DNA of 64,000 nt from Nitrospinota bacterium (GTDB lineage Bacteria; Nitrospinota_A; UBA7883; JACRLM01). A program made the position numbers and the translations under genes. The stretch covers positions 4,179-68,178 of the forward strand of contig JACRLM010000066.1 in the NCBI GenBank assembly GCA_016235255.1. The letters run 5' to 3'. The notes beneath the pieces were generated by a model. The model ran no database searches. It worked only from the letters and a program-made list of their open reading frames with translations, and was not told the origin of the DNA. Below are positions 21,710-62,856 of this stretch, piece after piece (positions within the stretch are counted from its first letter, which is position 1; every line of letters starts with the position of its first letter).

Positions 21710-21728
21710 GCGAACACTGTTGAACGTT

Positions 21729-21826: not shown

Positions 21827-21855
21827 TTGACCAGCCAATCCGCGCGTAATATCAT
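21827..21855 (+). promoter_or_regulatory. Candidate sigma70-type promoter for the ABC exporter gene
   Basis: TTGACC (21827..21832), a 17-nt spacer, then TATCAT (21850..21855). A small hairpin agccc-ttg-gggct lies just downstream. This is a hand scan only. Confidence 0.35.
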
Positions 21856-21906
21856 TAGGAGCCCTTGGGGGCTTCATTGGTGGCGTGGCAATCAGCATAA
21901 TTAAAG

Positions 21907-23565: not shown

Positions 23566-23571
23566 CATACT

Positions 23572-39615: not shown

Positions 39616-39780
39616 GCGTAAAAGAGCTTTTGGAAAAACTCGGCGGGCTGGACGTGCGAGTGCGCGCGGACGGCGGCAGGCTTAAGATAAGCGCGCCGGA
39701 AGGGACGCTCACGGAAATGCTGCGCGGGGAGATCGCCGGACGCAAGGGGGAGATAATCGCCTTTCTGGCGGAAGCGGCGG
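39612..39780 (+). other. TubC-N-type beta-hairpin docking domain (junction 1)
   Basis: The first ~55 aa precede the C domain and follow the pattern LLxxLxxxGVxLxxEGxxLRxxAPxGxLTxxL...K.EI. The upstream PKS ends in the acidic tail EEMEL. Confidence 0.6.
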
Positions 39781-42700: not shown

Positions 42701-43067
42701 ACATCGCGCCCCTTCGGCGGATGCTCGCCCGGCCAACGATCTGGAGCGGGACATGGCCGCCATATGGGGCAGGCTGCTGCAAAAGGAAGACGTGAGCGTA
42801 ACAGACAACCTTTTTGACATCGGAGCGCACTCGTTCTTGATCGTGAAGGCCCAGGCGGTGATAGAAAAAGAACTGGGGATCAGAATGGAGACGATAGAGA
42901 TGTTCCGCAACCCCACCATCCGCTTGCTGGCAAGGCGGCTTGGCGAAGCTTCACCGGGAACGGCCACTTGCGCCACCTTGGATCATTCGTCCACGGCGGA
43001 AAAGAGCAGGGGTGCCATTGCAAGGCAACGGGCGTTGATGAAAAAAATAAGAGGAGCCAATGGCTGA
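39612..43067 (+). CDS. NRPS module: beta-hairpin docking domain-C-A(Gly)-PCP
   Basis: GTGA overlap with the upstream gene. The N-terminus is TubC-N-like: MSVKELLEKLGGLDVRVRADGGRLKISAPEGTLTEMLRGEIAGRKGEIIAFL. C: LSSAQRRLWF, SHIVSDGWS. A: YIIYTSGSTGKPKGV, NMYGPTETTIW, YRTGDLARY. The hand-extracted specificity code is DILQLGMIWK, which matches the Gly code DILQLGLIWK at 9 of 10 positions. PCP: IGAHSF (Ser 42831). Confidence 0.93.
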   Translation: MSVKELLEKLGGLDVRVRADGGRLKISAPEGTLTEMLRGEIAGRKGEIIAFLAEAAGTRKSSSIVRVPREGRIPLSSAQRRLWFMDRMEGPGAAYNMPAAFKLTGRFDEAAFFKAVDAIVMRHETLRTAFPSEDGEPYQNIQGASRAPVAYDDLTALPHEEREAKALRSIKELTARPFDLSEGPLLRTHLIRTGEDERYLAFSISHIVSDGWSAGVFTREIEWLYEEHLCGRGAGLPELEVQYADYSAWERVELAEGKLMRQVEYWRETLAGAPPSLNLPADKARPAIQSSRGRTIGFAIGDDVRASLARISARSGSTMFMTLAAAYAVTMGRLSGQESVVIGVPAANRNTPELEGMIGLFANTLPLWIKLDGNPSFTTLLERARLAAIGMFENSEAPFESLVAALNPERDLSRNPIAQTLFALHKSPRHSMFPELNFPGVKSDTVEIENEHVRYDVETHMWETGGGIGGLLMYNTGIFNESTARRLAARYVMLAESIAADPEKRIYDYGLLTAEEITLVSDWGGTVSANPAGTVHGLFEKIAEQKPDAAAVISGDETVNYAQLNSRADALAVRLAAAGAGRGAAVGIFMERGAGMVAALLGALKSGAAYVPVDPSYPKERVEFMLADSGIRAVVTSAALASSLPAGDFSVVTMEGLSGAVAAEEDRPAEKISSDDLAYIIYTSGSTGKPKGVMVTHSNVVNFLSSMAEAPGISPEETALAVTTISFDIAALEIFLPLTSGARVVIASTGQARDAASLMALMEKHSVTFAQATPSTWRMLIEAGWNGGTGLKVLCGGEALSTELAAKLRARSGALWNMYGPTETTIWSSIYRVTDADMEGGVATQPVGKPIANTVMRILDAVLKPVPIGAAGELYIGGAGVAAGYKNRPELTAERFIPDPSGATGAKLYRTGDLARYLPSGDIEYLGRSDFQVKFRGHRIELGEVESAVASAPGVARAVVVVREDAPGDKRLVAYVTPSKAEHAEDAIKVAVKAKLPDYMAPSVYVFMDDLPLTPNGKVDRKALPAPRNKHRAPSADARPANDLERDMAAIWGRLLQKEDVSVTDNLFDIGAHSFLIVKAQAVIEKELGIRMETIEMFRNPTIRLLARRLGEASPGTATCATLDHSSTAEKSRGAIARQRALMKKIRGANG

Positions 43068-48714: not shown

Positions 48715-48880
48715 AATCAGCCGAAGATATAATCCGGGAACTGGATGGGCTGGGGGTAAAGCTCCGGGTGGAAGGCGAAGCCCTGCGCTATAAAGGCCCC
48801 AAAGGCGCAATCACCGGGCGGATGCGGGAGATCATCGGCGGGATGAAGGCCGAAATCATGGCGGCCGCCGCCCGCATGGC
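48711..48880 (+). other. TubC-N-type beta-hairpin docking domain (junction 2)
   Basis: The N-terminal ~55 aa are alignable by eye with 39612..39780. The upstream PKS ends in ELEEGEL. Confidence 0.6.
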
Positions 48881-51800
48881 GGATGACATACTGCCGCCTG
48901 TCATAAACCGTGAAAGGGGGGAAGGAGAGGCGCTGCCGCTGTCATTCGCGCAATTGAGACTATGGTTCCTGTACCGGATGGAGGGGCCCAGCCCAACTTA
49001 CAACGTCCCATCAGCGCACAGGATTAAAGGGAAGCTGGACATTGGCGCGTTGACAAAAAGCGTCAACCATATCATTGCTCGCCATGAGCCGTTGCGTATG
49101 CGCTTTTTCGAGAAAGATGGCGAGGCGTACCAGGCCGCGCGCCCGGTGATGGAGATAGATATACCAGTGGTCCGCCTTGCGGCCGATTCCCATGACGCGC
49201 GGATGGAACAGGCGCGGCGCATGGCAAGCCAAGAGGCGCTAAGGCCGTTTGATCTGGCCGCGGATCCGCTGATCCGGGTGTCCATGGTGGAAATAAGCGA
49301 GGACGACCGGCTGTTGCTTATAACGCTCCACCACATAATCGCCGACGGGTGGTCGGCGACAATTCTCACAATGGAACTGGAGAGACTGTACGATTCGTAT
49401 TTAAACGGCGCCTCTGTCAATCTACCATCGCTCGGGGTGAAATATTCCGATTACTGCCAATGGCAGAAGGATGTGCTAGTGGGTGAAAGGCTGGACAGGC
49501 AGGTCGCCGTTTGGACAGAAAAGCTGAAGGGGGCCCCTGCGCTTCATTCCCTGCCGCTGGACAGGCCACGCCCGGCCTTGCAAAGTTTTAAGGGTGAATC
49601 GGTATATTTCACCATCGGCGCGGACTTGACCGGACGGCTCAAGGCGTTCTGCCGCCAGGAAGGGGTGAGCCTTTTCATGGCCACACTTGCGGCGTTCGCG
49701 GCGATAGTGGCGAAGTACGGCGGGAAGGAGAGCATGGTCATCGGCGTTCCGGCGGCCAACCGGCTTCGCAAAGAGCTTGAGCCGCTCATCGGGCTTTTCG
49801 TCAACACGATTCCCCTGAGGGTGGAGGCCGGACTGGCGCTTTCGTTCAGGGAGCTTGCGGCGCGCACAAGGGAAGTTACGCTGGACTCTTTTTCCGGCCA
49901 GCAGGCCCCGTTTGAAAAACTGGTGGACGTCCTCCAGCCGGACCGGAACATGGCGTACAATCCCCTTACGCAGCTTTCGTTCATCCTGCAGGACAAAAAC
50001 ATGGGGACGCTAAAGCTCGGCGGGATCGCCATCGAGCCTTTCCCCACGGAGTGCAACACCGCCAAGTGCGACCTGACCCTTACCGTGCAGGAGGGCGCCG
50101 CCGGGCTGGACTGTTTTATCGCCTACGCCTCGGACATTTTCTGCCGCCCCTTCATCACCGGCATGGCCCGCCATTATCAAAACCTGATAGACCGCGCCCT
50201 CGGCGAACCGGACCGCCCCGTGGGCCAACTCGACCTTATGGACGGCGAGGAGCGGCGCCTTGCGCTAACGCAATGGAGCGGGGCCGCCAAATGTTCGAGG
50301 CACGACGGGCCTCTCGCCCATGAAATGATCGGCCAGGCCGCCAAACGCCATCCTGACGCAATGGCGGTGTCCGATGGAGCGTCGAGCCTCACGTACGCCC
50401 AGCTTGACGCGCGGGCGCTTGCCATCGCAAAAAGCCTTGCCGCCCGAGGCGCAGGCCCGGACAAAATAATCGGGATATGCCTGGAGCGTTCAGTTGACCT
50501 TATCGCCGCCATACTGGGAGTTTGGAAGGCAGGCGGGGCGTATATGCCGATAGACCCGGATTTCCCTCCGGCCAGGATGAAGTACATGGTGGAGAACTCT
50601 GGCGCGGTGGCTGTGATCACATCGTCCACTCTGGAACATGCCGCCGTCGAGGCTGGCGCTCCTCTGGTTTTTATTGATCGCGCATTCAAAACTTCTTCCG
50701 AGCCCGTATTTATCCATTCTGCGCGGCCCGAAAACCTGGCGTATGTCATATATACCTCCGGCTCCACGGGCCAGCCCAAAGGGGTGATGATAGAGCATCG
50801 CTCCTTAAGAAACCTCGTTCATGCGGTAAATAAGAGCATATATGAACCGTATGAGGGGCGGTTGAACGTGGCGCTTCTCGCTTCGGAAGCTTTTGACGCC
50901 TCGGTAAAGCAGATAGCGACGGCCCTTTGCCTTGGCCACACCCTGTTCGTGGTGGACGGGGCCACAAAAAGGGACGACAAGGCGCTCAAGGAGTTCTTCC
51001 GCAAACACAGGATAGACATGACCGACTGCACACCGAGCCTTCTTTCCGTGATGATCAACGCCGGGATACCGGGTGACGTGGAGTTGCGCCTGAAACATAT
51101 AGATGTGGGGGGTGAAGCGCTGACAAAAACCCTTGCCGCAAACTTCCATCGGCGAGCGCTCGGCACGGGAGTCACCCTTACCAACGCCTATGGGCCGGCG
51201 GAATGCTGCGTGGACGCGGCGAATTTCAATATTGATTCCTTCGCGCCGGGAGAACGGGGGATTGTGCCCGTGGGGGCTCCTCTTCAGAACGTCCGGATTT
51301 ACATCCTCGACGGGGAACTTGCGCCTGTCCCGCCCGGTGTGCCCGGGGAGATATGCATCGCCGGCGAGGGGGTGGGCCGCGGTTACATAAACAATCCAGC
51401 GCTCACGGCGGAACGCTTCATAGGCCACGGACCGCTGGGCGAGGCGCGGCTTTACCGCACCGGCGATATCGGCAGATGGTCCCATGACGGAATGGTGGAG
51501 TTCATCGGGCGCGCCGACGGCCAGGTGAAGGTGCGCGGTTACAGGATCGAGCTGGGGGAGGTGGAGGCGGCGCTAAAGAGCATACCCGGCGTGAAGTCCG
51601 CGGCGGTGGCGGCGGTGGAATTGGAGGACGAAACCCGGCGGCTGGAAGCGCTCTTGCAAGTGTCAAGTCCGGTGACCCCCGGCGGGCTGCGCGCAACGCT
51701 GCTGGAAACGCTGCCGGAGTACATGGTCCCGTCCCGGTTTTACGTGGTGGACTCCATTTCGCTGAACACAAGCGGAAAACTGGACAGGGGCGCGCTGGCG

Positions 51801-53471
51801 GCAATGAAAAAAACGGCGCTGGACAGCGGCGAGGAATTCATGGCCCCACGCGGGCAGCGGGAGGAAATTCTCGCGGAAGTGTGGCGGTCGGTCCTGGGGC
51901 TTGACAGGGTAAGCATCCGCGACAATTTTTTCACCATCGGCGGCGATTCCATAAAAGCGTTGCAGATAGCCGCCCGGCTGCGCGAAAGGAATTTCGAGAT
52001 CGCCATACGCGATCTGTTTTCCCGCCCCACCATCGAAGGACTGGAGCCGCTGCTAAAGGCCGTGAAACCCGAGGTGGACGGGGAAAATTCCGCCGATGGC
52101 CCTGTTCACCTTACCCCGATACAACTATGGTTTTTCGGCCAGTTCGGCGGGAACAAGGCGCATTTCAACCAGACCCTTCTGCTTGCGGCCAAGGAACGGC
52201 TGGACGAGGCCGCCCTGCGCAAAGCGCTGGAGGCCGCGACGGGAAGGCATGACGCGCTGCGCTCCCGGTTCTTCGGGCATGACGGGAAATGGACACAAGA
52301 GATTGGCGGGACTGACCGGCCTTTCAGATTGGACGTGGTGGACCTGACGGCCGAGGAGCATCCGGCCGGGGCGCTGAAAAAGCACGCTTCACTTTTGCAG
52401 GCCGGGATTGACATGGAACGCGGCCCGCTGTTCAACGCGGCGATCTACAGATTGAAAGATGGCGACAGGCTGTTTATGACCTGCCATCACCTGGTGGTGG
52501 ACGCCGTCTCATGGCGTTTTATTTTGGAGGACCTTGCCGCAGCTTACCAGCAGGCGTCCAAAGGCATGGCCCCAAAACTGCCGCCCAAACCTTTCCCGCT
52601 GAAAAAATGGGCCGCGCAGCTTTCCGCCTCGGCCAGCTCGATTGCGGCAGGCCAGATGGAGCACTGGAGCGAAGTGGAGGCGGAGGCGGTAAAAGCGCCG
52701 CGGCTGGCGCCGTTCAAACGCGGGCTTTATTCGGAACGGACGGAGGCCACCCGCTTGCTTGGCGCGGACGCCACATCAAAAATGCTGGACGGGGCCAACA
52801 AGGCATTTAACACGCGGCCGCAGGAACTTATGCTTACGGCGCTTCTGCGGACTTTTCAAAAGCTCGGCGGCGGCGATTCGATGGCTGTGACCCTCGAAGG
52901 CCACGGCCGTGAAGGTATCTTGCCCGGCGCCGATGTGAGCGGAACAGCCGGGTGGTTCACATCCAAGTATCCGGTGGTGTTCACCTCACCGGATGGTGAA
53001 GATATCGCCTCGCAGATTAAAGCGGTGAAGGAAGCGGTGCGGCGGACGCCCCATGGCGGAGCCGGGTACGGTGTCGCCCGGTATATGGCGGGGCAAAGCC
53101 CGGACGGCGGAATGTGGAGCGACCCTGAAATCCTTTTCAACTACCTTGGCGGCTTTGAAGAGCTGGACAACGATCTTTTCGGCAGAGCGTTCGAGGATGT
53201 TGGGCCGCACGCCTCGCCGGATGCGCGGGTGGGATGCGGCATCGAGCTGGTCTCGTACGTCTCGCGGGGAAACCTGGAAATATCGGTGTATTGCGACGGC
53301 CCGTCTTACACGGAAGGTTTTGCGGGGCATTTCGCGGAACGGTATATCAGGGAGCTGGAATCGGTGGCGGAGTTTGCGCTGTCGATGGAGAATCCGCAGC
53401 TCACTCCGTCGGACATAGACTACGACGGGTTCGGCATCGCCCAACTCGACGAATTCATCAATAAGCTGTAG
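48711..53471 (+). CDS. NRPS module: beta-hairpin docking domain-C-A-PCP-E
   Basis: GTGA overlap with the upstream gene. N-terminus: MKSAEDIIRELDGLGVKLRVEGEALRYKGPKGAITGRMREIIGGMKAEI. C: LSFAQLRLWF, HHIIADGWS. A: YVIYTSGSTGQPKGV, NAYGPAECCVDA, YRTGDIGRW. PCP: IGGDSIKAL (Ser 51948, the GGDSI form typical before E domains). E: HHLVVDAVSW. The C-terminal tail is COM-donor-like: TPSDIDYDGFGIAQLDEFINKL. Confidence 0.93.
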   Translation: MKSAEDIIRELDGLGVKLRVEGEALRYKGPKGAITGRMREIIGGMKAEIMAAAARMADDILPPVINRERGEGEALPLSFAQLRLWFLYRMEGPSPTYNVPSAHRIKGKLDIGALTKSVNHIIARHEPLRMRFFEKDGEAYQAARPVMEIDIPVVRLAADSHDARMEQARRMASQEALRPFDLAADPLIRVSMVEISEDDRLLLITLHHIIADGWSATILTMELERLYDSYLNGASVNLPSLGVKYSDYCQWQKDVLVGERLDRQVAVWTEKLKGAPALHSLPLDRPRPALQSFKGESVYFTIGADLTGRLKAFCRQEGVSLFMATLAAFAAIVAKYGGKESMVIGVPAANRLRKELEPLIGLFVNTIPLRVEAGLALSFRELAARTREVTLDSFSGQQAPFEKLVDVLQPDRNMAYNPLTQLSFILQDKNMGTLKLGGIAIEPFPTECNTAKCDLTLTVQEGAAGLDCFIAYASDIFCRPFITGMARHYQNLIDRALGEPDRPVGQLDLMDGEERRLALTQWSGAAKCSRHDGPLAHEMIGQAAKRHPDAMAVSDGASSLTYAQLDARALAIAKSLAARGAGPDKIIGICLERSVDLIAAILGVWKAGGAYMPIDPDFPPARMKYMVENSGAVAVITSSTLEHAAVEAGAPLVFIDRAFKTSSEPVFIHSARPENLAYVIYTSGSTGQPKGVMIEHRSLRNLVHAVNKSIYEPYEGRLNVALLASEAFDASVKQIATALCLGHTLFVVDGATKRDDKALKEFFRKHRIDMTDCTPSLLSVMINAGIPGDVELRLKHIDVGGEALTKTLAANFHRRALGTGVTLTNAYGPAECCVDAANFNIDSFAPGERGIVPVGAPLQNVRIYILDGELAPVPPGVPGEICIAGEGVGRGYINNPALTAERFIGHGPLGEARLYRTGDIGRWSHDGMVEFIGRADGQVKVRGYRIELGEVEAALKSIPGVKSAAVAAVELEDETRRLEALLQVSSPVTPGGLRATLLETLPEYMVPSRFYVVDSISLNTSGKLDRGALAAMKKTALDSGEEFMAPRGQREEILAEVWRSVLGLDRVSIRDNFFTIGGDSIKALQIAARLRERNFEIAIRDLFSRPTIEGLEPLLKAVKPEVDGENSADGPVHLTPIQLWFFGQFGGNKAHFNQTLLLAAKERLDEAALRKALEAATGRHDALRSRFFGHDGKWTQEIGGTDRPFRLDVVDLTAEEHPAGALKKHASLLQAGIDMERGPLFNAAIYRLKDGDRLFMTCHHLVVDAVSWRFILEDLAAAYQQASKGMAPKLPPKPFPLKKWAAQLSASASSIAAGQMEHWSEVEAEAVKAPRLAPFKRGLYSERTEATRLLGADATSKMLDGANKAFNTRPQELMLTALLRTFQKLGGGDSMAVTLEGHGREGILPGADVSGTAGWFTSKYPVVFTSPDGEDIASQIKAVKEAVRRTPHGGAGYGVARYMAGQSPDGGMWSDPEILFNYLGGFEELDNDLFGRAFEDVGPHASPDARVGCGIELVSYVSRGNLEISVYCDGPSYTEGFAGHFAERYIRELESVAEFALSMENPQLTPSDIDYDGFGIAQLDEFINKL

Positions 53472-53483: not shown

Positions 53484-56400
53484 ATGGCCATAGAGAAGAG
53501 CAACATAAAGAACATTTATCCATTGACCCCCACGCAGGAGGGGATGCTTTTCCATGCGCTCATGGAAACGTCGCCGGAGGCGTATTTCAACCAGATCATA
53601 TATACGCTGCGCGGTGATCTGGACGCCGACGCGTTCGAGAAAAGCTGGAACGAGATAATAAAGCGCCACGACACCCTGCGGACCCTGTTCACATACAGGA
53701 ACACCGACAGGCCCCTGCAGGTGGTGCTGCGGGAACGGCCCTTGCGCGCCTCCATCCACGATCTTATCGGCCTGCCACAGGCGCAAAAGGAGCTTGCGGC
53801 GGAGGAGATACGCCGCGCGGACCTTGCAAAGCCTTTCGACCTGGAACAGGACATCCTGATGCGGCTATATGTGATCCGTCTGGAGGACAATCTGTGGAAG
53901 GTGATATGGAGCCATCATCACATTCTCATGGACGGATGGTCGGTGGGCAATGTGATGAAAGAGCTTATGGCGGTGTACCTTGCCATGAAAAAAGGGACAA
54001 GGCCGGCCCTCGCCCCGCCGCCTCCATACGCTGAATACATAAAGTGGCTCGAAAAGCTGGACAAGTCCGCCTCGGGGGACTACTGGAAGCGTTACCTTGC
54101 CGGTTATGAAAAGCCGGTGACTTTCCCACGCTTGAAACGTCCATCTGGCAAACGGGAGATAAAGGACTTCAGATTCTCGTTTGATGAAACGTTGACCTCC
54201 CAGGTGGAGCGCTTCACCCGGGAGCGCGGCGTCACGCTGGGGGCTGTCACGCAGGGGGCGTGGGGCGCCCTTATGGCAAGGTATAACGGGGTGGACGACG
54301 TGGTGTCCGCTTCCGTCGTCTCCGGAAGGCCGCCGGAACTTGAGGGGGTGGAGTCCTATGTGGGGCTTTTCATAAACGCAATACCTGTCCGCTCCCGGAT
54401 CGGGGCCTCCACATCCTTCGCCGGGTTGACGGAGAGCCTTATGCGGGACGCGGCCGATGGCGCGGCCCACCACTATTATCCGCTGGGTAAAATACAGACG
54501 GCCCATCCTCTCGGGCGCAATCTTCTGGACCATGTGACGGCCCTGGAAAACTATCCTGTCCAGGAGCGGCTAAACGATCCGGCGCTGTATGAAGACCTCG
54601 GGTTTGCCCCAGTTAGCTTTGAATGGACCGAGCGCACCAACTACGACTACGATTTTATGGCCATCCCCGGCAAGCGGCTGGACTTCCATGTGACGTACGA
54701 CTCGAACATGTTCGATGCAGGGCAGATGGAGGCGATGGCGGGGCATCTTGAGAACATCGTCCGTTCGGCCGCCGCCGACCCCCTCGCGCCGCTGAATAAA
54801 ATGGACATCCTTGCCCCGGCAGAGAGAGAACGGATACTGTTCGAGTTTGGCGGGCCCGCCTCCATAAATCCACCGGATGGGACCGTCTTGAACCTTATCG
54901 AAGAGAACGCCCGTAAAACTCCCGATGCGGCAGCGCTGGTGTGCGCCGGACGGCGGCTTACCTATTCGCAATTGAACCAACGCGCCAACCGGATCGCCGG
55001 AAGGCTTATAAAAGCTTACGGTGTGCGCCCCGGGGACATTGTGGGTGTGATGATGGAAAAGAGCGAGCGGGCGGTGGTTGCCATCCTCGCCATCTTAAAG
55101 GCGGGCGCGGCGTACCTGCCTTTGGACCCGGAGCATCCGGAGAAAAGGACAGCCGGCATACTGGCGCAGGCAGGCGCGAAAATGCTTATCACCGAACAGC
55201 GCGTGGCCGAAGGGATGGAGTTTGACGGCATCCTGGACTTCATCATGCCGCAAACCGGGATCGTGACCACCCCCCCCCGCTCCAGCATACAGGAGCTGGA
55301 CTCGCTCCCCTACGCGGACAGGTCGGTGATCAATTACGAGAAATACCACAACTTCATCGGCCAGTCCGTGGCAAAGCGCGCTATGGCCATCCAGTCCACC
55401 CGGGGATGCCCATACCTTTGCGCCTACTGCCACAAAGTGTGGCCGAAAAAGCACAAGCGCCGCTCCGCCGAAAACCTTTTCGGCGAGGTGAAAAAACTGC
55501 ATGACTGCGGTGTGCGCAGGTTCGTGTTCATAGACGATATTTTCAACATGGACCGCGCCAACAGCGCAAGGTTCTTCGAGATGGTGATCCGCGCCCGGCT
55601 GGACATACAGATATTCTTCAGCAACGGGCTGCGGGGGGACACGCTGACCCCGGACTACATAGACCTTATGGTGGAGGCTGGGACGAAGAGCATGGCCCTG
55701 GCGCTGGAGACCGCGTCGCCACGCCTGCAGAAACTGATGAAGAAAAACCTGCGCCTCGAGCGGTTCAAGGAAAACCTGGACTATATCGCCGCCCGCCACC
55801 CGCAGGTGATCCTGGAGCTTTTCACCATGCACGGCTTCCCCACGGAGACGGAGGAAGAGGCCATGATGACGCTGGATTTCATCCGCGGGATAAAGTGGAT
55901 ACATTTTCCCTATGTGTTCATCCTCCGCATTTTCCCGGACACGGACATGGCAAGGCTGGCGATGGACAACGGCGTGAGCGCGGAAGCGATAAAAGCTTCC
56001 GCCACGCTGGGCTACCACGAGCTGCCGTCAATACTGCCATTCCCGGCCAGCTTTTCAAAACGATATCAGATGACGTTCCTGAACGAGTACTTCCTCTCGC
56101 GCGAGCGGCTGATTTCCGTGCTGCCGCGCCAGATGGCGCTTTTGAGCGAGGACGAGCTTGTCCAGAAATACAACAGCTATCTGCCAAAAGACATCCGGTC
56201 GTTCGGCGATTTTCTGGAGCTTGCGGGGCTTTCAATGGAAGACCTGCGGGGGGCGGCCTTCGCGGAGGACGGCGCAAAGCAGTCCGCCGGGCTCAACAGC
56301 AGGCTCGCCGCCGCGTTCCCCTCGCCTAACCCTGAGAAAGGGGCGCTCCGCGTCCTGCTGCTCGACCTTTCGCAGAATTTTACGAAGGACAAAACCCTCC

Positions 56401-59400
56401 TGTACGATGTGATGGAGCCGCCGCTTGGGCTTGCGCTGCTGGCCACAAGGCTGAAAAACGAGTTCGGCCCCAAAGTGGAGGTGAAGATAGCCAAGGCCCG
56501 CGCCGATTTCGACAGTTTTGAAGAATTGCGCGCGCTGATGGACGACTTCCGGCCGGACCTGACCGGGGTGCGCTCATTGACCTATTACAGGAGCTTTTTC
56601 CACAAGACGGTGTTCCTTGTCCGTCAATGGGGATATGAAGGCGCCATCATCGCCGGCGGCCCCCATGCGACCAGCGCAACGGCGGACACATTGCGAAATC
56701 CCGGCGTGGCCTTCGCCGCCCTGGGGGAAGGGGAGGAGACGCTGGCGGAGCTTGTGCGTGAAACGATCAATAACAAAGGGCGGCTTCCCGGCAGGGACGT
56801 ATTGGGCCGCGTGGCAGGCGCCGCCATGGCGCGTGATGCGCGGAACGGCGCTGAATATCCTCGAGCCGCGCTTTTTGAAAAGCTGGAAAGGGACTCAGCC
56901 GCGCTCTCCGCCGAAGACATAAACGAGGCGAAAAGCGACGGCCTTGCGTATGTGATCTTTACCTCCGGCTCCACTGGGGAGCCCAAGGGGGTGATGGTGG
57001 AGCACAGGCAACTATGCAACCTGGTCACATGGATCGGCAGTGACATGTATTCAACGCTTCCCAAGCCTGTCAACGAAGCCATGCTTCCGTCGCTTGTGTT
57101 CGACGTGTCGGCCCAGCAGATTTTCGGAGCGCTCTCCACCGGGAACACTCTGCATGTAATAGAGGACGACGTGCGGCTCGACCCTCAAATGTTGCTCGAT
57201 TATCTTCGCGAGAACGAAATCCATGTCGTCAACTTCACTCCGACGCTGTTGCGGCGCGCTCTATCGTCCGCCGGATCGCGGAATCCGGGCTGGGCGCTAA
57301 GGCACGTGATCGTGGGGGCGGAGCCTTTGTGGATGGAGGACGTGGAATCGTTTTACTCCACGCCGGCCAACCGGGGGATCGTCATGCGCAACATGTACGG
57401 CCCAACCGAATGCTGCGTGGACGCCACCAGTTTCGTATTCGGCTTTTCAGCGCCGTTAGAGTGGAATAGCGTGCCCATAGGCAGGCCCATAGGTAACGCC
57501 CGGGCGCTGATTCTCGACGGCGCCGGGCTGCCGGTCCCCGCCGGGGTGGAAGGGGAGCTTTATGTGTCCGGCGCGGGGGTGGCCAGGGGATATGTTAAAG
57601 ATGACGGCGGCGGAAGGTTCATGGCCGATCCGTTCGCGCCGGGCTTGCGCATGTACCGTACCGGCGACATGGCGCGATGGCTGCCGGGCGGGAACATAGA
57701 ATTTCTGGGCCGGATGGACAACCAGGTGAAGGTTCGCGGCCACAGGATAGAACTGGGCGAGATAGAGAACAGGCTGCGATCCCATCCAAGGGTGTCCGGG
57801 GCGGCGGCGATCTTGCGCAAGACGGACGAGGGCGAAAGCGAGCTTGTGGCGTATGTGGCCTCCGGCGACGGGCTGGACGCCGAAGGGCTCCGGGAATATA
57901 TGGGCGGCCACCTGCCCGATTACATGATCCCATCCCATATAGCGCTGGTGGACAAAATCCCGGTGACACCGGGGGGGAAAGTGGACCTGCGCGCGTTGGA
58001 TTCCACAGCGGCGCAAGCGGCCCCCACGAATGGCGAGGATAGCGCCGCCCCCCGGTCGGAGATGGAAAAGACGGTGGCGGCCATATTCGCCAATACCCTC
58101 GGCCAGCCTTCCATGGGGATACATGACAATTATTTTTCGATGGGGGGCGATTCGATTAAGGCCATTCAGATACTGTCGCGGCTGCGGCAGAAAAACCTGA
58201 ACCTCAAGCTTGCCGACCTTTTTTCGAATCCCACCATAGCCGGAGTGGCGCCTTATGTGGTGAGGCTGGACCGCACCGCGCAACAAGGGCTCATCACCGG
58301 GCCGGTCCCGCTCACCCCGATCCAGCGCGCCTTCTTTGAAAGGGACGCCGCGGCGCCTGACCATTTCAACCATTCCATAGCGCTGCGGGCAAAAAAGCCG
58401 CTGGATCCGGCGATCCTGGAAAAAGCCCTTTCGGCCGTGTGGGAGTGGCATGACGCGCTGCGCATGAGGTACAGGCGCGATGGGGAAGAGGTCGTCCAGG
58501 AATGCGCTGGGCTTGAGAACAGGCTGGATTTCTCATTCAAAGACCTGTCCACGTCCCCGGACGGCGACACGGAGGCCATGCGCGCGATGGGCGAGGCGCA
58601 ACAGCGGTTCGACCTGGCCACGGGGCCGCTGGCCAGGTTCATCCTGTTCCGGCTTGCCGGCGGCGAGACGCTTTTCATCACCGTCCACCACCTTATCATT
58701 GACATGGTCTCGTGGAGATTGTTGCTTGAGGACATTTCCACGGCCTACGAGCAAGCGGCGCGGGGCGGCCAGGCGCGCCTGCCGGCCAAGACCGATTCGT
58801 TCCGACAATGGGGCGAGGCCCTTTTGGAATTCGCAAAAAGCCCAAAACTTCTTGCCGAACTTGAAACATGGGCACAGATCGAAAACAGCGAATACGCCGA
58901 GCCCGTTCCGGACTTCCCGGGAGGCGGCAACACCTTCGCCAGCGAACATATTGAAAGTTTCACCCTGCAGGCGCAGATGGGGGAGAAACTGACCGGGGAG
59001 GCCAACAGGGCATATAACACCACGCCCGACGAGCTTGTGCTGGCAGCCCTTGGCCAGGCTTTGGAAAAATGGGGGATGAAAGGCGCCACGTTGATCGATC
59101 TGGAGGGGCACGGCAGGGAGGAGATCTCGCCGGGGCTGGACATAAGCCGTACCGTCGGCTGGTTCACCTCCACGCACCCTTTCACGCTGGGCCTTGACGG
59201 CGCTCCGATGGACGCGCGCATAAAGAGAGTGAAGGAAGCCAGGCGGAAGGTTCCACACAAGGGAATAGGCCACGGGATATTGGGCAGGATCACACCCCGC
59301 GAATTGCTGAGGGGAGCCAGATTCACCCAAAAGCCGGGAATAAGTTTCAATTACCTGGGCTTTATTGGCGGATCGGCCATGGGGCCGCTGTTCGAGCCGT

Positions 59401-59684
59401 CGCCGCTTGCGTCCGGCCGGGATGTAAGCCCGCTCAATCAAAGGGTGGCGGGTCTGGACATAAGCTGCGCGGCGTGGACGGGGGGCTTCACTTTGTCCAT
59501 CCGCTACAGCGGCGAGCAATACCGAAGTGATAATATCAAGCGCCTGCTCGGCCAGATAGAAGAAGGAATCGCCGCGGCCCTTTCCCTCTGCCTTAAAATG
59601 GAGGCCACGGAGCCCACCCCGTCGGACATGACGTACAAGGGGCTTAGCCTTCAGGAGTTCGAGGAGATATTCGCCGATGATTAG
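53484..59684 (+). CDS. NRPS module with an interrupted adenylation domain: C(DCL-type)-A[N-part]-radical SAM-B12-binding-A[C-part]-PCP-E
   Basis: C: IYPLTPTQEGMLFH, HHHILMDGWS. A1: LTYSQLNQRANRIAG. A2: LKAGAAYLPLDP (55095..55130). Insert: STRGCPYLCAYCH, FVFIDDIF, then VLLLDLSQ...PPLGLALLATRL...IIAGGPHATS...GEGEETLAELV. A3: LAYVIFTSGSTGEPKG (56943..56990). A4-A10: FDVSAQQ, NMYGPTECCVDAT, YRTGDMARW, GRMDNQVKVRGHRIELGEIE, GGKVD. PCP: MGGDSIKAI (Ser 58152). E: VHHLIIDMVSW. The reading frame is uninterrupted throughout. Confidence 0.9.
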   Translation: MAIEKSNIKNIYPLTPTQEGMLFHALMETSPEAYFNQIIYTLRGDLDADAFEKSWNEIIKRHDTLRTLFTYRNTDRPLQVVLRERPLRASIHDLIGLPQAQKELAAEEIRRADLAKPFDLEQDILMRLYVIRLEDNLWKVIWSHHHILMDGWSVGNVMKELMAVYLAMKKGTRPALAPPPPYAEYIKWLEKLDKSASGDYWKRYLAGYEKPVTFPRLKRPSGKREIKDFRFSFDETLTSQVERFTRERGVTLGAVTQGAWGALMARYNGVDDVVSASVVSGRPPELEGVESYVGLFINAIPVRSRIGASTSFAGLTESLMRDAADGAAHHYYPLGKIQTAHPLGRNLLDHVTALENYPVQERLNDPALYEDLGFAPVSFEWTERTNYDYDFMAIPGKRLDFHVTYDSNMFDAGQMEAMAGHLENIVRSAAADPLAPLNKMDILAPAERERILFEFGGPASINPPDGTVLNLIEENARKTPDAAALVCAGRRLTYSQLNQRANRIAGRLIKAYGVRPGDIVGVMMEKSERAVVAILAILKAGAAYLPLDPEHPEKRTAGILAQAGAKMLITEQRVAEGMEFDGILDFIMPQTGIVTTPPRSSIQELDSLPYADRSVINYEKYHNFIGQSVAKRAMAIQSTRGCPYLCAYCHKVWPKKHKRRSAENLFGEVKKLHDCGVRRFVFIDDIFNMDRANSARFFEMVIRARLDIQIFFSNGLRGDTLTPDYIDLMVEAGTKSMALALETASPRLQKLMKKNLRLERFKENLDYIAARHPQVILELFTMHGFPTETEEEAMMTLDFIRGIKWIHFPYVFILRIFPDTDMARLAMDNGVSAEAIKASATLGYHELPSILPFPASFSKRYQMTFLNEYFLSRERLISVLPRQMALLSEDELVQKYNSYLPKDIRSFGDFLELAGLSMEDLRGAAFAEDGAKQSAGLNSRLAAAFPSPNPEKGALRVLLLDLSQNFTKDKTLLYDVMEPPLGLALLATRLKNEFGPKVEVKIAKARADFDSFEELRALMDDFRPDLTGVRSLTYYRSFFHKTVFLVRQWGYEGAIIAGGPHATSATADTLRNPGVAFAALGEGEETLAELVRETINNKGRLPGRDVLGRVAGAAMARDARNGAEYPRAALFEKLERDSAALSAEDINEAKSDGLAYVIFTSGSTGEPKGVMVEHRQLCNLVTWIGSDMYSTLPKPVNEAMLPSLVFDVSAQQIFGALSTGNTLHVIEDDVRLDPQMLLDYLRENEIHVVNFTPTLLRRALSSAGSRNPGWALRHVIVGAEPLWMEDVESFYSTPANRGIVMRNMYGPTECCVDATSFVFGFSAPLEWNSVPIGRPIGNARALILDGAGLPVPAGVEGELYVSGAGVARGYVKDDGGGRFMADPFAPGLRMYRTGDMARWLPGGNIEFLGRMDNQVKVRGHRIELGEIENRLRSHPRVSGAAAILRKTDEGESELVAYVASGDGLDAEGLREYMGGHLPDYMIPSHIALVDKIPVTPGGKVDLRALDSTAAQAAPTNGEDSAAPRSEMEKTVAAIFANTLGQPSMGIHDNYFSMGGDSIKAIQILSRLRQKNLNLKLADLFSNPTIAGVAPYVVRLDRTAQQGLITGPVPLTPIQRAFFERDAAAPDHFNHSIALRAKKPLDPAILEKALSAVWEWHDALRMRYRRDGEEVVQECAGLENRLDFSFKDLSTSPDGDTEAMRAMGEAQQRFDLATGPLARFILFRLAGGETLFITVHHLIIDMVSWRLLLEDISTAYEQAARGGQARLPAKTDSFRQWGEALLEFAKSPKLLAELETWAQIENSEYAEPVPDFPGGGNTFASEHIESFTLQAQMGEKLTGEANRAYNTTPDELVLAALGQALEKWGMKGATLIDLEGHGREEISPGLDISRTVGWFTSTHPFTLGLDGAPMDARIKRVKEARRKVPHKGIGHGILGRITPRELLRGARFTQKPGISFNYLGFIGGSAMGPLFEPSPLASGRDVSPLNQRVAGLDISCAAWTGGFTLSIRYSGEQYRSDNIKRLLGQIEEGIAAALSLCLKMEATEPTPSDMTYKGLSLQEFEEIFADD
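55230..56905 (+). other. Roughly 550-aa insert in the A domain: radical SAM core (about 55300..56330) followed by a cobalamin-binding-type domain (about 56340..56800)
   Basis: The CxxxCxxC Cys codons are at 55407, 55419 and 55428. The upstream LPYADRSVINYEKY and downstream RRFVFIDDIFNMDR and LALETASPRLQKLMKK match class B radical SAM strand patterns. The B12-domain pattern is PPLGLAxLAxxL...(F)RPDLTG(V)...GGPHAT...GEGEET. Boundaries are approximate to about 60 nt. Confidence 0.8.
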
Positions 59685-62600
59685 CAAGGAAAACCTCAAG
59701 GACATGTATCCGCTCTCCCCCATGCAGGAGGGGATGCTTTATCACGCCGTGGCGGACAGGGATTCGCGCGCGTATTTCGAGCAGATATCGTTCCGGATAA
59801 GCGGAGAGCTGGACATCGGAAAATTCATGGAGGCGTGGACGGAGATATTCCGCCGCCACGATATCCTGCGCACGGCGTTCCTGCTGGAAAAGGCCAGCAG
59901 GCCGCTCCAGATAGTGCTCAAGGAGCGCAAACCCGGCTTTAGCGTGGATGACATAAGCGCCGAGCCCGAGGAGGAAAAGGAAAGGACCGTCATCCGGTTC
60001 CGGGAAGAAGATAAACAGCGCGGATTTGATCTGGCGCGCGATCCGCTGATGAGGTTTCGCGTAATAGTCCTGGGCGGGGGCCGGTTCGAGGTCATATGGA
60101 GCTTAAGCCACATCGTCATGGACGGATGGGGCATATCGCTGGCGCATACGGAATTTTTTGAGATATACACCGCTTTGAAGGAGGGACGCGCCCATACACT
60201 TCCTCCGGCGCCTCCTTATTCGCGCTTTATCCAGTGGCTGGAGGAGCGGGACAAAAGAGCATCGTTGGACTATTGGGAGAAATACCTGGCGGACTATCAG
60301 ACGGCCGTATCAATCCCGAAACTTCCGGGCGCGCCCAACGGGAAAGAGTTTGCGGTGGCGATACACTCTTCCACCCTCGGAGCGGAGCGGGTGCGCAAGG
60401 TCGAGCAGCTTGCCGCGGCGCATGCCGTCACGCCGAACATGGTTTTCCAGGCGGCGTTATCGGTGGCGCTTTGCATGTACAACGGGGTGGACGACGCCGT
60501 TTTCGGATCAGTGGTGTCCGGCAGGCCGCCGGAGCTTCCCGGCGCGGAAAAGACCCTCGGACTTTTCATAAACACCATCCCGGTGCGGGGGAGTGTGGAC
60601 TGGGACAGCGGGTTGGACGTGCTTTTAAAGCGCCTGATGAAAAGCGGCGTGGAGAGCGCCCCGCATCATCACAGTTTCCTGGGGGAGGTGATCGGCCGCT
60701 CCACCCCCGGGCGGGACCTGATCAGTGCCCTGCTTATTTTTGAGAACTATCCGTTGGACGCCTTGACCATGCTCCCGTCCACCGGATTTGATATCATCCG
60801 GACCAAACGCTTTGAAATGACCACGTCGGATTTTAACGTTGTGGTAATTCCGGGCGGTGACATGCGGGTGGATTATCACTACAACCAGAACGTCCACAGC
60901 GCGGCCCAGGTGGAGCGGACGGCGTCGCATCTGGTGAAAATCCTCGATTTTGCGATAGAAGGGGCTTCTCGGCCTCTTTCCATGCTCAAGGTCATGGACG
61001 ATGAGGAGATGAACGCCGTGACTATCGGATTCCAGGGGAAGTCCGCCGCGATCCCGGAAGGCAAGACAGTGGACGCCATGTTCACGGACTCGGCTTTAAA
61101 GCACGGGGACAGGATCGCGGCGATGGATGGCGCTGGCGAGGTGACATATCAAAGGCTCGACCGCATGGCCAACGGCGTGGCGCGGGCGCTCATTGAAAAA
61201 GCTTCGGTGGGCAAGGGGGACGTGGTGGCGGCGGTGGTGCACAGGTCGCGCTGGCTTGCCGCTTCGTTCATGGGCATATTGAAGGCCGGCGGGTTGTACC
61301 TTCCTTGCGATCCTGATCTGCCCGCCGAAAGGATACGATTCATGATGCGCGATTCAGCCTGCAAGGCTGTGATCGTGGATGACGCAGGCGTCGCCGCGCA
61401 ACTGGCCGATGGCGGCGTTCCGGTCATAATGACGGACGACATAAAAGAAAGCCCGGCCCAATCCGCCGCCGCCGCCGATCCGGAAGAGCCGGCCTATCTT
61501 ATATACACATCCGGTTCCACTGGTGTCCCCAAAGGTGCGCTCATCAGCCACCGGGCCGCCATCAACCTGAGCATGTGGCACAACCGGTTCTACAAAGTGG
61601 ACGAAAACAGCAGGGGCACGTTGCACGCCTCACCTTCGTTCGACGCCTCCGTATGGGAGACGTTGCCGTACCTGTTCGCAGGCGCCAGCCTTTGCGCCGT
61701 GGAAGGGGAGACGCGCACCGATATGGCTAAACTGGCCTCATTTTATCAGGACAAACGTATCACGCACAGCTTTCTGCCCCCAGCCCTGCTCACGCAGTTT
61801 CTGGAGGAGAACGGCGGCTCCCTCGCGGGCAAAATAACGATAGTCACCGGAGGCGAGACGCTAAAGCGCGCGGGCGACGGTTCCGTCCTGGTGGCGAACA
61901 ATTATGGGCCGACCGAATGCGCCGTGGCGGCCACCGCCGTTTGCCTGGACGAGCCGCGCCTTCGCGAATGCATCCCAATCGGCCGCCCGATAGACAACGT
62001 GAAAGTTTATATTCTGGACAGCCGCATGCGACCCGTTCCCATCGGCGCCATCGGCGAGATTTATATAGGCGGCGCCGGAGTGGGGAATGGATACGTAAAC
62101 CGGCCCGAGCTCACGGCGGCGGCGTTTGCGCCAGGCCCTTTTGAAAACGGCGCGAAACTTTACAGGACGGGGGACATGGCCCGGTGGCGCGACGACGGGC
62201 TTATTGATTTTACCGGCAGGCGGGACGGCCAGGTGAAAATACGCGGTAACAGGGTTGAGACAGGCGAGATTGAAAAGCTTCTTGAGGGGCACGCGACGGT
62301 CACCTCGGCGGCGGTGGTGGCCAGGGACGATGGCGCGGGGTCGAAGGAACTGGCGGCGTTCTATGTTTCCGGCAAAGAGGAGGATGTGGCGGACCTGCGG
62401 GCGCATCTTGCGTCCAGAGTCCCGGAATACATGATTCCTTCCATGTTCATCAGGATGGAAAAGCTGCCGCTGGCATCCAGTGGAAAAGTGGACCGGAGCG
62501 CCCTGGAGGCCGCCGCCATTGCCGCCGCGCGTCCTCAAAAACAGGGAGGGGCCCCCAGAAATCCCGCGGAAACACGGATGCTGGAAATCTGGGCGGGGGT

Positions 62601-62856
62601 TATGGGTGTGAAGGGGGCTGGAATATTTGACAATTTCTTCGACCTGGGTGGCCACTCCATAAAAGCGGCGCAACTGGCCTCGCGCATTCGCAAGGAGTTC
62701 GGCGTGGAGATGCCCCCCAATTCCATATTCGAAAATCCGACGGTGGAGAGTATCTGCCAGGCCATGGAAACGGTGAAACAGGCGGCTCCCGGCAATGGTG
62801 GACAGATGATTGGCAAAGCCCCGCGCGGCCGCAAGCCGGCCGTGATGGACAGTTGA
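59677..62856 (+). CDS. NRPS module: C(DCL-type)-A-PCP
   Basis: 8-nt overlap with the upstream gene. MYPLSPMQEGMLYH, SHIVMDGWG. A: LKAGGLYLPCDP, YLIYTSGSTGVPKGA, NNYGPTECAVAA, YRTGDMARW. The hand-extracted code DAWFVGNVAK is closest to the Leu code DAWFLGNVVK. PCP: LGGHSIKAA (Ser 62656). Confidence 0.93.
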   Translation: MISKENLKDMYPLSPMQEGMLYHAVADRDSRAYFEQISFRISGELDIGKFMEAWTEIFRRHDILRTAFLLEKASRPLQIVLKERKPGFSVDDISAEPEEEKERTVIRFREEDKQRGFDLARDPLMRFRVIVLGGGRFEVIWSLSHIVMDGWGISLAHTEFFEIYTALKEGRAHTLPPAPPYSRFIQWLEERDKRASLDYWEKYLADYQTAVSIPKLPGAPNGKEFAVAIHSSTLGAERVRKVEQLAAAHAVTPNMVFQAALSVALCMYNGVDDAVFGSVVSGRPPELPGAEKTLGLFINTIPVRGSVDWDSGLDVLLKRLMKSGVESAPHHHSFLGEVIGRSTPGRDLISALLIFENYPLDALTMLPSTGFDIIRTKRFEMTTSDFNVVVIPGGDMRVDYHYNQNVHSAAQVERTASHLVKILDFAIEGASRPLSMLKVMDDEEMNAVTIGFQGKSAAIPEGKTVDAMFTDSALKHGDRIAAMDGAGEVTYQRLDRMANGVARALIEKASVGKGDVVAAVVHRSRWLAASFMGILKAGGLYLPCDPDLPAERIRFMMRDSACKAVIVDDAGVAAQLADGGVPVIMTDDIKESPAQSAAAADPEEPAYLIYTSGSTGVPKGALISHRAAINLSMWHNRFYKVDENSRGTLHASPSFDASVWETLPYLFAGASLCAVEGETRTDMAKLASFYQDKRITHSFLPPALLTQFLEENGGSLAGKITIVTGGETLKRAGDGSVLVANNYGPTECAVAATAVCLDEPRLRECIPIGRPIDNVKVYILDSRMRPVPIGAIGEIYIGGAGVGNGYVNRPELTAAAFAPGPFENGAKLYRTGDMARWRDDGLIDFTGRRDGQVKIRGNRVETGEIEKLLEGHATVTSAAVVARDDGAGSKELAAFYVSGKEEDVADLRAHLASRVPEYMIPSMFIRMEKLPLASSGKVDRSALEAAAIAAARPQKQGGAPRNPAETRMLEIWAGVMGVKGAGIFDNFFDLGGHSIKAAQLASRIRKEFGVEMPPNSIFENPTVESICQAMETVKQAAPGNGGQMIGKAPRGRKPAVMDS

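Follow-up and report, generated by a model that had tools for sequence, protein, structure and literature searches.

In a Nitrospinota metagenome-assembled genome, what appears to be one elongation module of a lipopeptide-making hybrid PKS/NRPS line has an adenylation (A) domain with a radical SAM/B12 insert in a surface loop, between its core motifs a2 and a3. This A domain represents a new type of interrupted A domain. Judged from its homologues, the inserted enzyme, a permuted one, probably C-methylates the PCP-bound amino acid of the module, both cobalamin binding and C-methylation being predicted from homology. The module, of the layout C-A(rSAM/B12)-PCP-E (2066 aa, 53484..59684), was delineated by the open reading frame list, translation, Pfam and exact look-up within the window, by which we mean the whole 64,000-nucleotide stretch of DNA analysed; all features described here lie on the plus strand. 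It opens with a Condensation domain (aa 9-452, 53508..54839; Pfam PF00668, 2e-174), which we infer to be DCL-like because it is similar to the C domain of 59677..62856, itself placed after an E domain (the assignment rests on BLAST comparison with the C/E domains of the window itself rather than on C-subtype HMMs); the module upstream likewise ends in an E-like domain. The N-terminal fragment of the A domain (54891..55220), delimited by aligning it to three further A domains in the window, holds motif A1 (LTYSQLNQRANRIAG, 54957-55001), motif A2 (LKAGAAYLPLDP, 55095-55130) and then a helix-strand-helix up to the insertion point. The insert follows (aa 580-1140, about 555-561 aa, 55221..56903; bounded by alignment and by free-standing homologues with the same start and end points), comprising a radical SAM core (aa 637-800, 55392..55883) with the [4Fe-4S] motif CPYLCAYC at 55407-55430, a helical bridging region taken from AF2 secondary structure (about aa 840-950, 56001..56333) that is family-conserved and gave no Pfam match, and a B12-binding-type Rossmann domain (aa 979-1091, 56418..56756) with the motifs PPLGLALLA, IIAGGPHATS and LGEGEE. 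The rest of the A domain (56904..58013; specificity code DVQNIGMVDK) resumes with A3 (LAYVIFTSGSTGEPKG, 56943-56990) and runs through A4 FDVSAQQ, A5 NMYGPTE, A6, A7 YRTGD, A8, A9 LPDYMIP and A10 GGKVD to a PCP domain (aa 1530-1590, 58071..58253; Pfam PF00550, 1.4e-11; Ser in GGDSI, 58143-58157) and an E domain (about aa 1600-2050, 58281..59633), a second Condensation-family stretch with HHLIIDMVSW at 58686-58715; in BLAST, the domains that follow the closest homologous modules matched it best. In NCBI, the protein (MBI5815649.1) is annotated merely as 'AMP-binding protein'.

The initial annotation had described this A domain as split between A2 and A3 by 604 residues, and both the coordinates and the motifs hold, compared with gaps of 58, 59 and 61 residues in the three other NRPS A domains measured in the window. 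A1 to A10 are all present (54957-57986) in a single polypeptide, and the PCP serine and E-domain motif follow A10 in the same open frame of 2066 codons, in agreement with the uninterrupted frame claimed earlier; the foreign catalytic domain thereby sits between two consecutive core motifs. Pfam analysis of the whole protein divided the AMP-binding match into two stretches, plus AMP-binding_C, and placed within the split match, as had been anticipated, Radical_SAM (PF04055, aa 637-800, E = 6.4e-19, 69 bits vs a cut-off of 29.5) and B12-binding (PF02310, aa 979-1091, E = 1.1e-11, 45 bits vs a cut-off of 32.1), matches that are far beyond chance. The Cys codons of the CxxxCxxC motif stand at 55407, 55419 and 55428, where they had been reported, and belong to a PF04055-matching partial TIM-barrel core. 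In a structure model of the whole domain, the A-domain fold was preserved around the insert (N-terminal A fragment, pLDDT 88-96). The a2-a3 insertion site itself is on Acore.

The two domains of the insert are those of class B radical SAM enzymes, a PF02310-type Rossmann domain and a radical SAM core in one polypeptide, but their order (radical SAM core, helical bridge, B12 domain) is the reverse of the canonical class B layout, in which the B12 domain lies N-terminal to the core. The class B pairing proposed initially was borne out in domain content; the order differs. Among the curated models of class B subfamilies (BchE, PhpK, KedN5, rSAM_ocin_1, others), none came near its cut-off on the insert, which scored 62-91 bits against model cut-offs of 360-750 bits. 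The top NCBIfam match was BchE (90.9 bits vs a cut-off of 481), a cyclase rather than a methylase. Matches of NCBIfam class B models (BchE, ApyD, PhpK, KedN5, others) fell on the insert's first half, at model positions of about 150-400. In profile alignment, positions 390-506 of the family profile matched residues 23-140 of a classical B12-radical SAM enzyme, and positions 45-212 matched residues 189-362. These profile comparisons make the insert a circularly permuted form of the class B layout, in a family distinct from the curated class B subfamilies. The chain ends of the insert correspond to the B12-domain/radical SAM-core junction of classical enzymes, a position that may let it either sit within a loop or stand alone. 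The AF2 model of the insert (pLDDT 91.7, pTM 0.91) placed the radical SAM core nearest class B and MTTase enzymes and the Rossmann domain nearest cobalamin-binding domains, and the nearest solved structure was AprD4 (PDB 6fd2, a dehydratase by its PDB title; 19% identity). Mmp10 (PDB 7qbs), a B12-dependent radical SAM arginine C-methyltransferase, is said to have been described by Fyfe et al. in 2022 with the radical SAM domain before a C-terminal cobalamin-binding domain, and the radical SAM-then-B12 order as such would then be precedented in a proven C-methylase.

The nesting is not a singular oddity of the window: a search of other genomes revealed a large cross-phylum family, nested as well as free-standing, which we define in this analysis as the permuted NRPS-associated radical SAM/B12 family. 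The window insert matches the family profile over its full length (about 540 aa) in the order core, bridge, B12 domain. A GTDB scan returned at least 434 confirmed relatives, and most of the 78 loci kept from it had A2 upstream and A3/A7/A10 downstream in frame. Among the matches listed, nesting at a2-a3 recurred in dozens of genomes that span about 15 phyla, with the closest genomic relative of the insert at 64% identity; the cultured Desulfosediminicola flagellatus has the same nesting and a syntenic cluster. The spacing from A2 to the cluster motif was 91-93 aa in 59 modules, and that from A2 to A3 was 602-621 aa in 43 modules. With 91 aa from A2 to the cluster motif and 74 aa from GEGE to A3, the window module falls within the ranges that mark the conserved a2-a3 position (91-93 and 72-85 aa, respectively). 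The best 150 of the 50%-identity representatives (E below 1e-256) contained 146 proteins of 1032-7548 aa, some of them with 2-3 copies. Against 120 database members, the window insert showed 45-55% identity over 82-99% of its length (mostly at least 93%). Free-standing members were located within NRPS/PKS clusters, and the family as a whole appears to be dedicated to such clusters, mostly in anaerobes, its members being nested at the a2-a3 site, fused to A-domain remnants or free-standing.

By sequence identity, the insert is the most conserved segment of the module. Compared with the Ozemobacteraceae homologue, identity was 71% for the radical SAM core, about 50% for the A flanks and 40% for the E domain; with the Desulfosediminicola homologue it was 66%, about 46% and 30%, respectively. 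The helical bridge showed 66% and 46% identity to two relatives (L004 and L008, respectively), and the B12 domain 57% and 54% across phyla with nearly invariant PLG, GGP[YH]AT and GEGE motifs, while the cluster cysteines were at least 90% conserved in the family. In some Aminicenantes proteins the A domain is decayed and the radical SAM part intact. We count the insert as functional because of this conservation, the retained cysteines and its persistence where the A domain has decayed. Host A-domain codes in the family correspond to Thr, Pro, Ile, Leu, Glx, Asn and Tyr, and nearest neighbours by insert shared the A-code class in 38 of 57 cases (6.1 expected; maximum of 17 in 5000 shuffles). 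At the level of sequence, insert similarity thus tracks the A-domain specificity code, a correlation that can also arise from the A domain and insert being inherited as one unit.

In the mechanism that we propose, the A domain would put its amino acid on the PCP, and the Ppant arm would bring the aminoacyl thioester to the radical SAM active site, where reductive SAM cleavage at the [4Fe-4S] cluster would yield a 5'-dA radical that strips an unactivated sp3 carbon, C-beta being the most plausible one, of a hydrogen; a methyl radical would then come from methylcobalamin, with cob(I)alamin re-methylated by a second SAM, and the methylated residue would be condensed and epimerised by the E domain. 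The epimerisation foreseen by the initial annotation fits the E domain of the window module, whereas, of 41 related modules, only about 10 have an E domain next. Action on the module's own substrate is favoured because insert similarity tracks the host A code and free-standing members reside in NRPS/PKS clusters, and is further supported by interrupted A domains with M inserts, in which methylation takes place on the T-domain-bound substrate (PMC11355689). A pantetheinylated ligand, named in the PDB titles of entries 9n1b/9n1c for CysS, points the same way; CysS is an enzyme of an NRPS pathway. As claimed earlier, methyltransferase insertion at a2-a3 is documented, namely for methyltransferases that act on side chains (PMC8341866, PMC11355689). 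In TioN A-Ms-A of thiocoraline and in MarQ, too, an A domain that is otherwise complete is split between a2 and a3 by a SAM-using tailoring domain of foreign origin (Lundy et al. 2020, PMC8341866; PMC11355689). Those inserts modify the amino-acid side chain of a carrier-bound substrate, a feature that the window insert is proposed to share, but they are class I (Rossmann) SAM methyltransferases of ~300-400 aa for polar N-, O- or S-methylation, whereas the window insert, of ~555 aa, would be a radical enzyme with two cofactors and sensitivity to oxygen, for which unactivated C-H bonds are the expected targets. In the solved interrupted A domain TioS(A4aM4A4b) (PDB 5wmm), by contrast, a backbone N-methyltransferase is inserted at a8-a9 in the mobile Asub, whereas the window insert is in Acore. 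A full-text literature search found no description of a radical SAM or B12 insert in an NRPS A domain, consistent with the novelty proposed initially, and the papers PMC8341866 and PMC11355689 on interrupted A domains mention neither radical SAM, B12 nor cobalamin.

The strongest alternative, which we regard as unlikely yet deserving serious weight, is that the nested enzyme is active but not a methylase, catalysing dehydration or rearrangement (AprD4/OxsB-like), desaturation, or cyclisation/cross-linking (BchE-like) on the tethered residue or chain, with a Rossmann domain that lacks cobalamin or puts it to another use. The BchE top match, the distance of the family from all curated methylase models and the chemical diversity of the host residues are in line with such a role. 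AprD4, a radical SAM 1,2-diol dehydratase of classical domain order, acts on an aminoglycoside without methylation; to our knowledge, its B12-like domain is present with cobalamin unused, and we know of no sequence motif diagnostic for cobalamin binding. AprD4 thus warns that homology alone does not fix the chemistry. Nevertheless, the class B enzymes characterised so far that have a PF02310 domain are, as far as we know, mostly methylases, and those of peptide pathways C-methylases. The classical class B methylases CysS (9n1b/9n1c), TokK (7kdx), TsrM (6wte), MgmA (9ccb), PoyC and DscE share both homologous domain types with the insert, but are free-standing with an N-terminal B12 domain, in contrast to the permuted family with its reversed order and family-specific helical bridge. 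C-methylation of aliphatic peptide residues is established for the stand-alone B12-radical SAM enzymes DscE, acting on the nonribosomal peptide discodermin (PMC12858407), and PoyC and EreB, acting on ribosomal peptides. The conservation of the B12 domain across phyla argues for a working cofactor site, and C-beta methylation is one reaction compatible with all host specificities seen.

We consider it quite improbable that the enzyme modifies a target other than its own aminoacyl-S-PCP, be it the growing peptidyl chain, the substrate of a module next to it or the peptide after release, with the A domain as a mere scaffold holding the enzyme to the assembly line. DscE does work on the finished discodermin peptide (PMC12858407), and Aminicenantes proteins, in which an intact radical SAM/B12 unit is flanked by no more of the A domain than an A1-A2 fragment or a degenerate A3, suggest that the A part can be a mere adaptor; moreover, 39 of 89 free-standing members end in an acidic tail, FNDDLE[ND]E, like the tails before TubC_N docking domains in the window. 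Against this, insert similarity follows the host A code across phyla, the A domain of 53484..59684 is fully intact, and the inserts of known interrupted A domains work on the host-loaded substrate (PMC11355689). The reading of the insert as an inactive relic, or of the nesting as an assembly chimera or frameshift artefact, draws on the metagenome-assembled origin of the genome and is effectively refuted already by the exact 2066-aa product on four contigs (including Logan assemblies of the separate runs SRR12113394 and SRR12113395 and the NCBI MAG), by the recurrence of this nesting, its junction spacing varying by no more than 2 residues, in dozens of unrelated genomes, one of them the complete genome of a cultured strain, by an insert better conserved than its host domains with every cluster cysteine and family-invariant residue present, and by a GC content without discontinuity at either insert junction. 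The nested radical SAM/B12 unit is not an assembly artefact, because identical proteins occur in independent assemblies and the same nesting recurs across dozens of genomes.

For the family as a whole, we see about even chances that anaerobic and microaerophilic bacteria of many phyla possess an undescribed yet widespread NRPS tailoring system, in which circularly permuted B12/radical SAM domains, either set in A domains or docking in trans, would add methyl groups to unactivated carbons in the side chains of carrier-bound residues (Thr, Pro, Ile, Leu, Glx, Asn, Tyr and others) while the chain is being assembled. If true, this would be a nonribosomal counterpart of polytheonamide/proteusin C-methylation, and NRPSs would thereby gain their first known in-cis radical enzyme; the system would yield beta-branched or tert-alkyl residues beyond current structure-prediction tools.

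The interrupted module is encoded by an ORF at 53484..59684 on the forward strand, which the ORF list and translation gave as 2066 codons without interruption. Pfam assigned to it, all on that strand, a Condensation domain (aa 9-452), a second C-family stretch representing the E domain, AMP-binding_C, PP-binding, and an AMP-binding match split into two stretches (the best at aa 1142-1370, profile positions 152-383), within which Radical_SAM (aa 637-800, E 6.4e-19) and B12-binding (aa 979-1091, E 1.1e-11) were nested, in agreement with the motif-based reading of the initial annotation. The motif coordinates behind that reading proved exact (A2 at 55095-55130, A3 at 56943-56990, cluster Cys codons at 55407/55419/55428), and the reported A2-A3 gap of 604 residues was confirmed against 58, 59 and 61 residues in the window's three other measured NRPS A domains. 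Alignment with the window's other A domains placed the insert at about aa 580-1140 (55221-56903, forward strand), starting after the post-A2 helix-strand-helix and ending before the strand that runs into A3. The exact protein is MBI5815649.1 of a Nitrospinota MAG, with 'AMP-binding protein' as its sole annotation; it was identically encoded on four contigs, among them Logan contigs assembled from two separate sequencing runs, SRR12113394 and SRR12113395, and GC content showed no break at the insert junctions. A chimeric assembly or frameshift was ruled out by the identical product in independent assemblies and by a junction geometry that is conserved across genomes.

The same nesting, sought in other genomes, recurred in many unrelated ones. 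A profile scan of GTDB species representatives yielded at least 434 confirmed relatives, and in most of the 78 loci kept from among them the match lay in frame in a large ORF, preceded by A2 and followed by A3, A7 and A10. Hosts among these loci included Aminicenantes, Acidobacteriota, Deferrimicrobium, Clostridia, Halanaerobiales, Bacteroidales, Desulfobacterota, Omnitrophota, Chloroflexota, SAR324, Planctomycetota, Melioribacteraceae, Elusimicrobia and Ozemobacteraceae, as well as the cultured Desulfosediminicola flagellatus IMCC35005 (complete genome) and Lachnoclostridium phytofermentans; Pfam bore out the nesting in both of these and in an Ozemobacteraceae MAG. The distance from the end of A2 to the RGCP cluster motif was 91-93 aa in 59 modules, and in the related modules GEGE to A3 spanned 72-85 aa and A2 to A3 602-621 aa, a near-invariant geometry that points to one homologous insertion site.

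Searched against a protein database, the insert had more than 2,500 matches at E<=1e-5, the best of them only 55% identical. Among the top 120 matches, 90 were free-standing, 540-600 aa long and bounded at the same points as the insert, and about 30 were flanked by A-domain sequence; the two forms were intermixed at 50-58% identity in average-linkage clustering, and the free-standing members examined were located within NRPS/PKS clusters. An acidic tail, FNDDLE[ND]E, was conserved in 39 of 89 free-standing members checked (P0002, P0006, P0008, P0051 and others; locus L003, 8298..11665) and may be a docking motif for action in trans on the assembly line. In the window, proteins preceding TubC_N docking domains end in similar acidic stretches (…AAREEMEL, …DELEEGEL). 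When 1.84 billion 50%-identity representatives were searched exhaustively with HMMER, 6,408 proteins (50%-identity clusters) matched at E<=1e-30, among which there may be ordinary class B enzymes; of the best 150 (E below 1e-256, full-length), almost all were megasynthases and 146 were previously unseen (1032-7548 aa, median 2865). Where the databases named family proteins, they did so only as 'AMP-binding protein', 'radical SAM protein' or 'YgiQ (UPF0313 family)', and to our knowledge BGC product-prediction tools hold no model of such a domain. Some proteins carried two or three insert copies (P0124-P0130, up to 7548 aa). Multi-copy genomes, which carry nested or free-standing units, were also observed: of the 78 loci kept, 8 to 10 came from one MAG (L010, L028, L031, L032, L039, L040, L045, L064), and Aminicenantes CS4-C025 had many copies (L014, L016, L017, L030, L037, L038, L043, L048, L063). 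Such copy numbers per genome and per protein hint at heavily modified peptides.

Within the insert, the radical SAM domain precedes the B12 domain, the reverse of the order in canonical class B enzymes. NCBIfam class B models (BchE, ApyD, PhpK, KedN5, HpnJ, BzaD and others) matched insert residues ~12-255, all far under their cut-offs (best 91 bits versus 481), and these matches fell at model positions ~150-400, after the models' N-terminal B12 domain. A profile built from the family and searched against a classical-order B12-radical SAM protein of [Clostridium] polysaccharolyticum produced two matches in swapped order, with profile positions 390-506 on residues 23-140 (B12 domain) and 45-212 on 189-362 (radical SAM core). 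Together, the model positions and the swapped matches show the family to be circularly permuted relative to the class B architecture. In the NRPS/PKS cluster of [Clostridium] polysaccharolyticum (locus L001), a free-standing permuted member (10001..11641) adjoins the classical-order protein (11656..12981, 441 aa), so that both layouts occur in one pathway. No solved structure of a close homologue of the insert was found, and when the B12 domain was searched by itself against PDB sequences, only noise came back (E>=0.07; HisRS, TrpA).

Among the matches listed, the nearest relatives of the window module were those of Ca. Ozemobacteraceae (64% insert identity) and D. flagellatus (58%), both with the code DVQN[IL]GMVDK and the C-A(rSAM/B12)-PCP-E layout of the window. 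Neighboring ORFs measured 1586/2066/1059 in the window, 1536/2057/1038 in Ca. Ozemobacteraceae (L004, 35..17526) and 1595/2073/1051 in D. flagellatus (L008, 104..17586; NZ_CP050698), where the orthologous ORF lies at 8210..14431 of the locus, and the genes form a syntenic cluster common to three phyla, in one of which the carrier is a cultured strain. Segment by segment, the insert was the most conserved part of the module relative to these two relatives: identities to Ozemobacteraceae and D. flagellatus, respectively, were 71% and 66% for the radical SAM core, 57% and 54% for the B12 domain, about 50% and 46% for the A flanks, 50% and 36% for the C domain, and 40% and 30% for the E domain. 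Across 121 sequences, conservation reached at least 90% at the three cysteines of the cluster motif and at some 100 further positions. Some Aminicenantes proteins had a decayed A domain and an intact insert; in one type, of about 725 aa, an A1-A2 fragment and the rSAM/B12 unit were followed by a short '…DYDF' tail without A3-A10 (two in tandem at L084, 5802..10175; also P0015 and P0043), and in the other (P0039) a degenerate A3 was kept, LAYINVSFDLKGKPNS. In these proteins the A domain seems to serve as an adaptor, with the radical enzyme retained, and the conservation pattern as a whole argues for a functional insert.

Specificity codes were compared across 57 host A domains. The Thr class (canonical DFWNIGMVHK) comprised 12 modules and Pro-type codes (DVQFIAHVVK and variants) 11, alongside Ile (4), Leu, Glu/Gln-like, Asn and Tyr-like codes and codes without a matched amino acid (DPWY..., DPEN..., DVMN..., DVQN...). 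The window code, DVQNIGMVDK, agreed at 7/10 positions with the Thr code (DFWNIGMVHK) and at 6-7/10 with the Gln code (DAQDLGVVDK), and was assigned to neither. Two recurrent codes fit no amino-acid code known to us, namely DPWY[ILF]GT[IV]N (L039, L041, L048, L055, L065, L067, L068, L073) and DPENIG[HQ][IV][DE] (L022, L033, L061, L072), and such modules may select unusual substrates. The nearest neighbor of an insert belonged to the same code class in 38 of 57 cases; 6.1 were expected, and 5000 label shuffles gave no more than 17. The correspondence often held across phyla. Insert similarity thus tracks the code, which shows that the A domain evolves together with its insert and is compatible with substrate matching, though no proof of it.

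An E-like domain followed only about 10 of 41 related modules, and the remaining downstream domains resembled ordinary C domains, which rules out a universal A(rSAM)-PCP-E module. The statement in the initial annotation that the residue is then epimerized accordingly stood for the window module, which has an E domain, and did not extend to the family, epimerization being a feature of the window module's subclade. That the radical SAM unit might itself act as a PoyD-like epimerase in place of E is unlikely: where E is missing, the post-PCP domains resembled C domains located after PKS modules in the window and were unlike those located after E, in a BLAST comparison with the window's own domains only, which is a weak test. 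We know of no radical SAM epimerase with a B12 domain.

The permuted architecture of the insert, its conservation and its NRPS association are shown; for the chemistry, class-B-type C-methylation of the aminoacyl-S-PCP would be the most economical reading. Non-methylating radical chemistry by the insert is a serious rival to it, since the closest structure, AprD4, which is not known to use cobalamin, is a dehydratase, and the best HMM match, BchE, is a cyclase. Analogies lend support to C-methylation: M inserts of interrupted A domains act on a T-bound substrate (PMC11355689), the PDB titles of the CysS entries 9n1b and 9n1c name a pantetheinylated ligand, DscE C-methylates Ala and Val residues in the nonribosomal peptide discodermin (PMC12858407), and PoyC and EreB perform the same C-methylation in RiPPs. 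In the C-methylation scheme, SAM would be cleaved reductively at the [4Fe-4S] cluster, and the resulting 5'-dA radical would abstract hydrogen from an sp3 carbon of the tethered residue, most plausibly C-beta, the one position common to every host specificity seen; methylcobalamin would then give the methyl, a second SAM would re-methylate cob(I)alamin, and condensation, plus epimerization in the window module, would follow.

The left end of the window carries rpoB (a start-truncated ORF call) and rpoC (112..7675), phylogenetic markers on a contig that NCBI assigns to Nitrospinota, followed by housekeeping and envelope genes to about 26 kb. The biosynthetic cluster starts at 26699 with a FAAL-like A, ACP, KS, DH, carrier domain, C, A and PCP (26699..35092), and continues with KS-AT-KR-ACP (35089..39615), TubC_N-C-A-PCP (39612..43067), KS-AT-cMT-KR-ACP (43060..48714), TubC_N-C-A-PCP-E (48711..53471), the rSAM/B12-interrupted C-A-PCP-E module (53484..59684, forward strand), C-A-PCP (59677..62856), and a 1411-aa C-A-PCP NRPS gene running from 62907 to beyond 64000 (19424..23659 in locus L082). 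In the A domain encoded by this last gene, about 400 aa separate a8 from a9 as an insert, which (at ~aa 900-1230 in L082) matched the NCBIfam model TIGR03573 (E 2e-24, positions 3-324 of 344), a WbuX N-acetyl sugar amidotransferase of the PP-loop ATPase type, and Pfam QueC (E 1e-5). The same cluster holds a second, different unusual interrupted A domain, with a WbuX-like PP-loop amidotransferase as its insert.

Interrupted A domains are established, and a2-a3, the site of the window insert, is a documented position (TioN, MarQ). A 2020 census of bacterial interrupted A domains lists M domains only (PMC8341866), and the words 'radical', 'B12' and 'cobalamin' are all absent from it; a 2024 review covers M, Ox, KR and MOx inserts only (PMC11355689), and a 2025 paper calls the co-occurrence of an NRPS and a stand-alone radical SAM C-methyltransferase an 'unusual enzyme combination' (PMC12858407). 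The full-text literature searched, with subscription-only papers outside its scope, held no radical SAM or B12 domain inside an A domain, and the earlier impression that no NRPS with such a domain in cis had been described held in open full text. On this literature, the window insert represents a class of insert new to interrupted A domains, and its family a permuted branch of B12-type radical SAM enzymes that is new, dedicated to NRPSs and abundant in sequence data; both are undescribed as far as can be told. The circular permutation explains in concrete structural terms how a two-domain cofactor enzyme came to be insertable, which is of use for engineering, and the syntenic cluster in cultured D. 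flagellatus IMCC35005 makes the question directly testable. Family members come mainly from little-studied anaerobes (Aminicenantes, Acidobacteriota, Clostridia, Desulfobacterota, Bacteroidales, Omnitrophota, Nitrospinota). Tailoring by the inserts known so far, namely class I methyltransferases, KR, Ox and MOx, is polar only. With a radical SAM/B12 insert, C-H functionalization at unactivated carbons, hitherto assigned to free-standing enzymes or RiPP pathways, would enter the assembly line itself.
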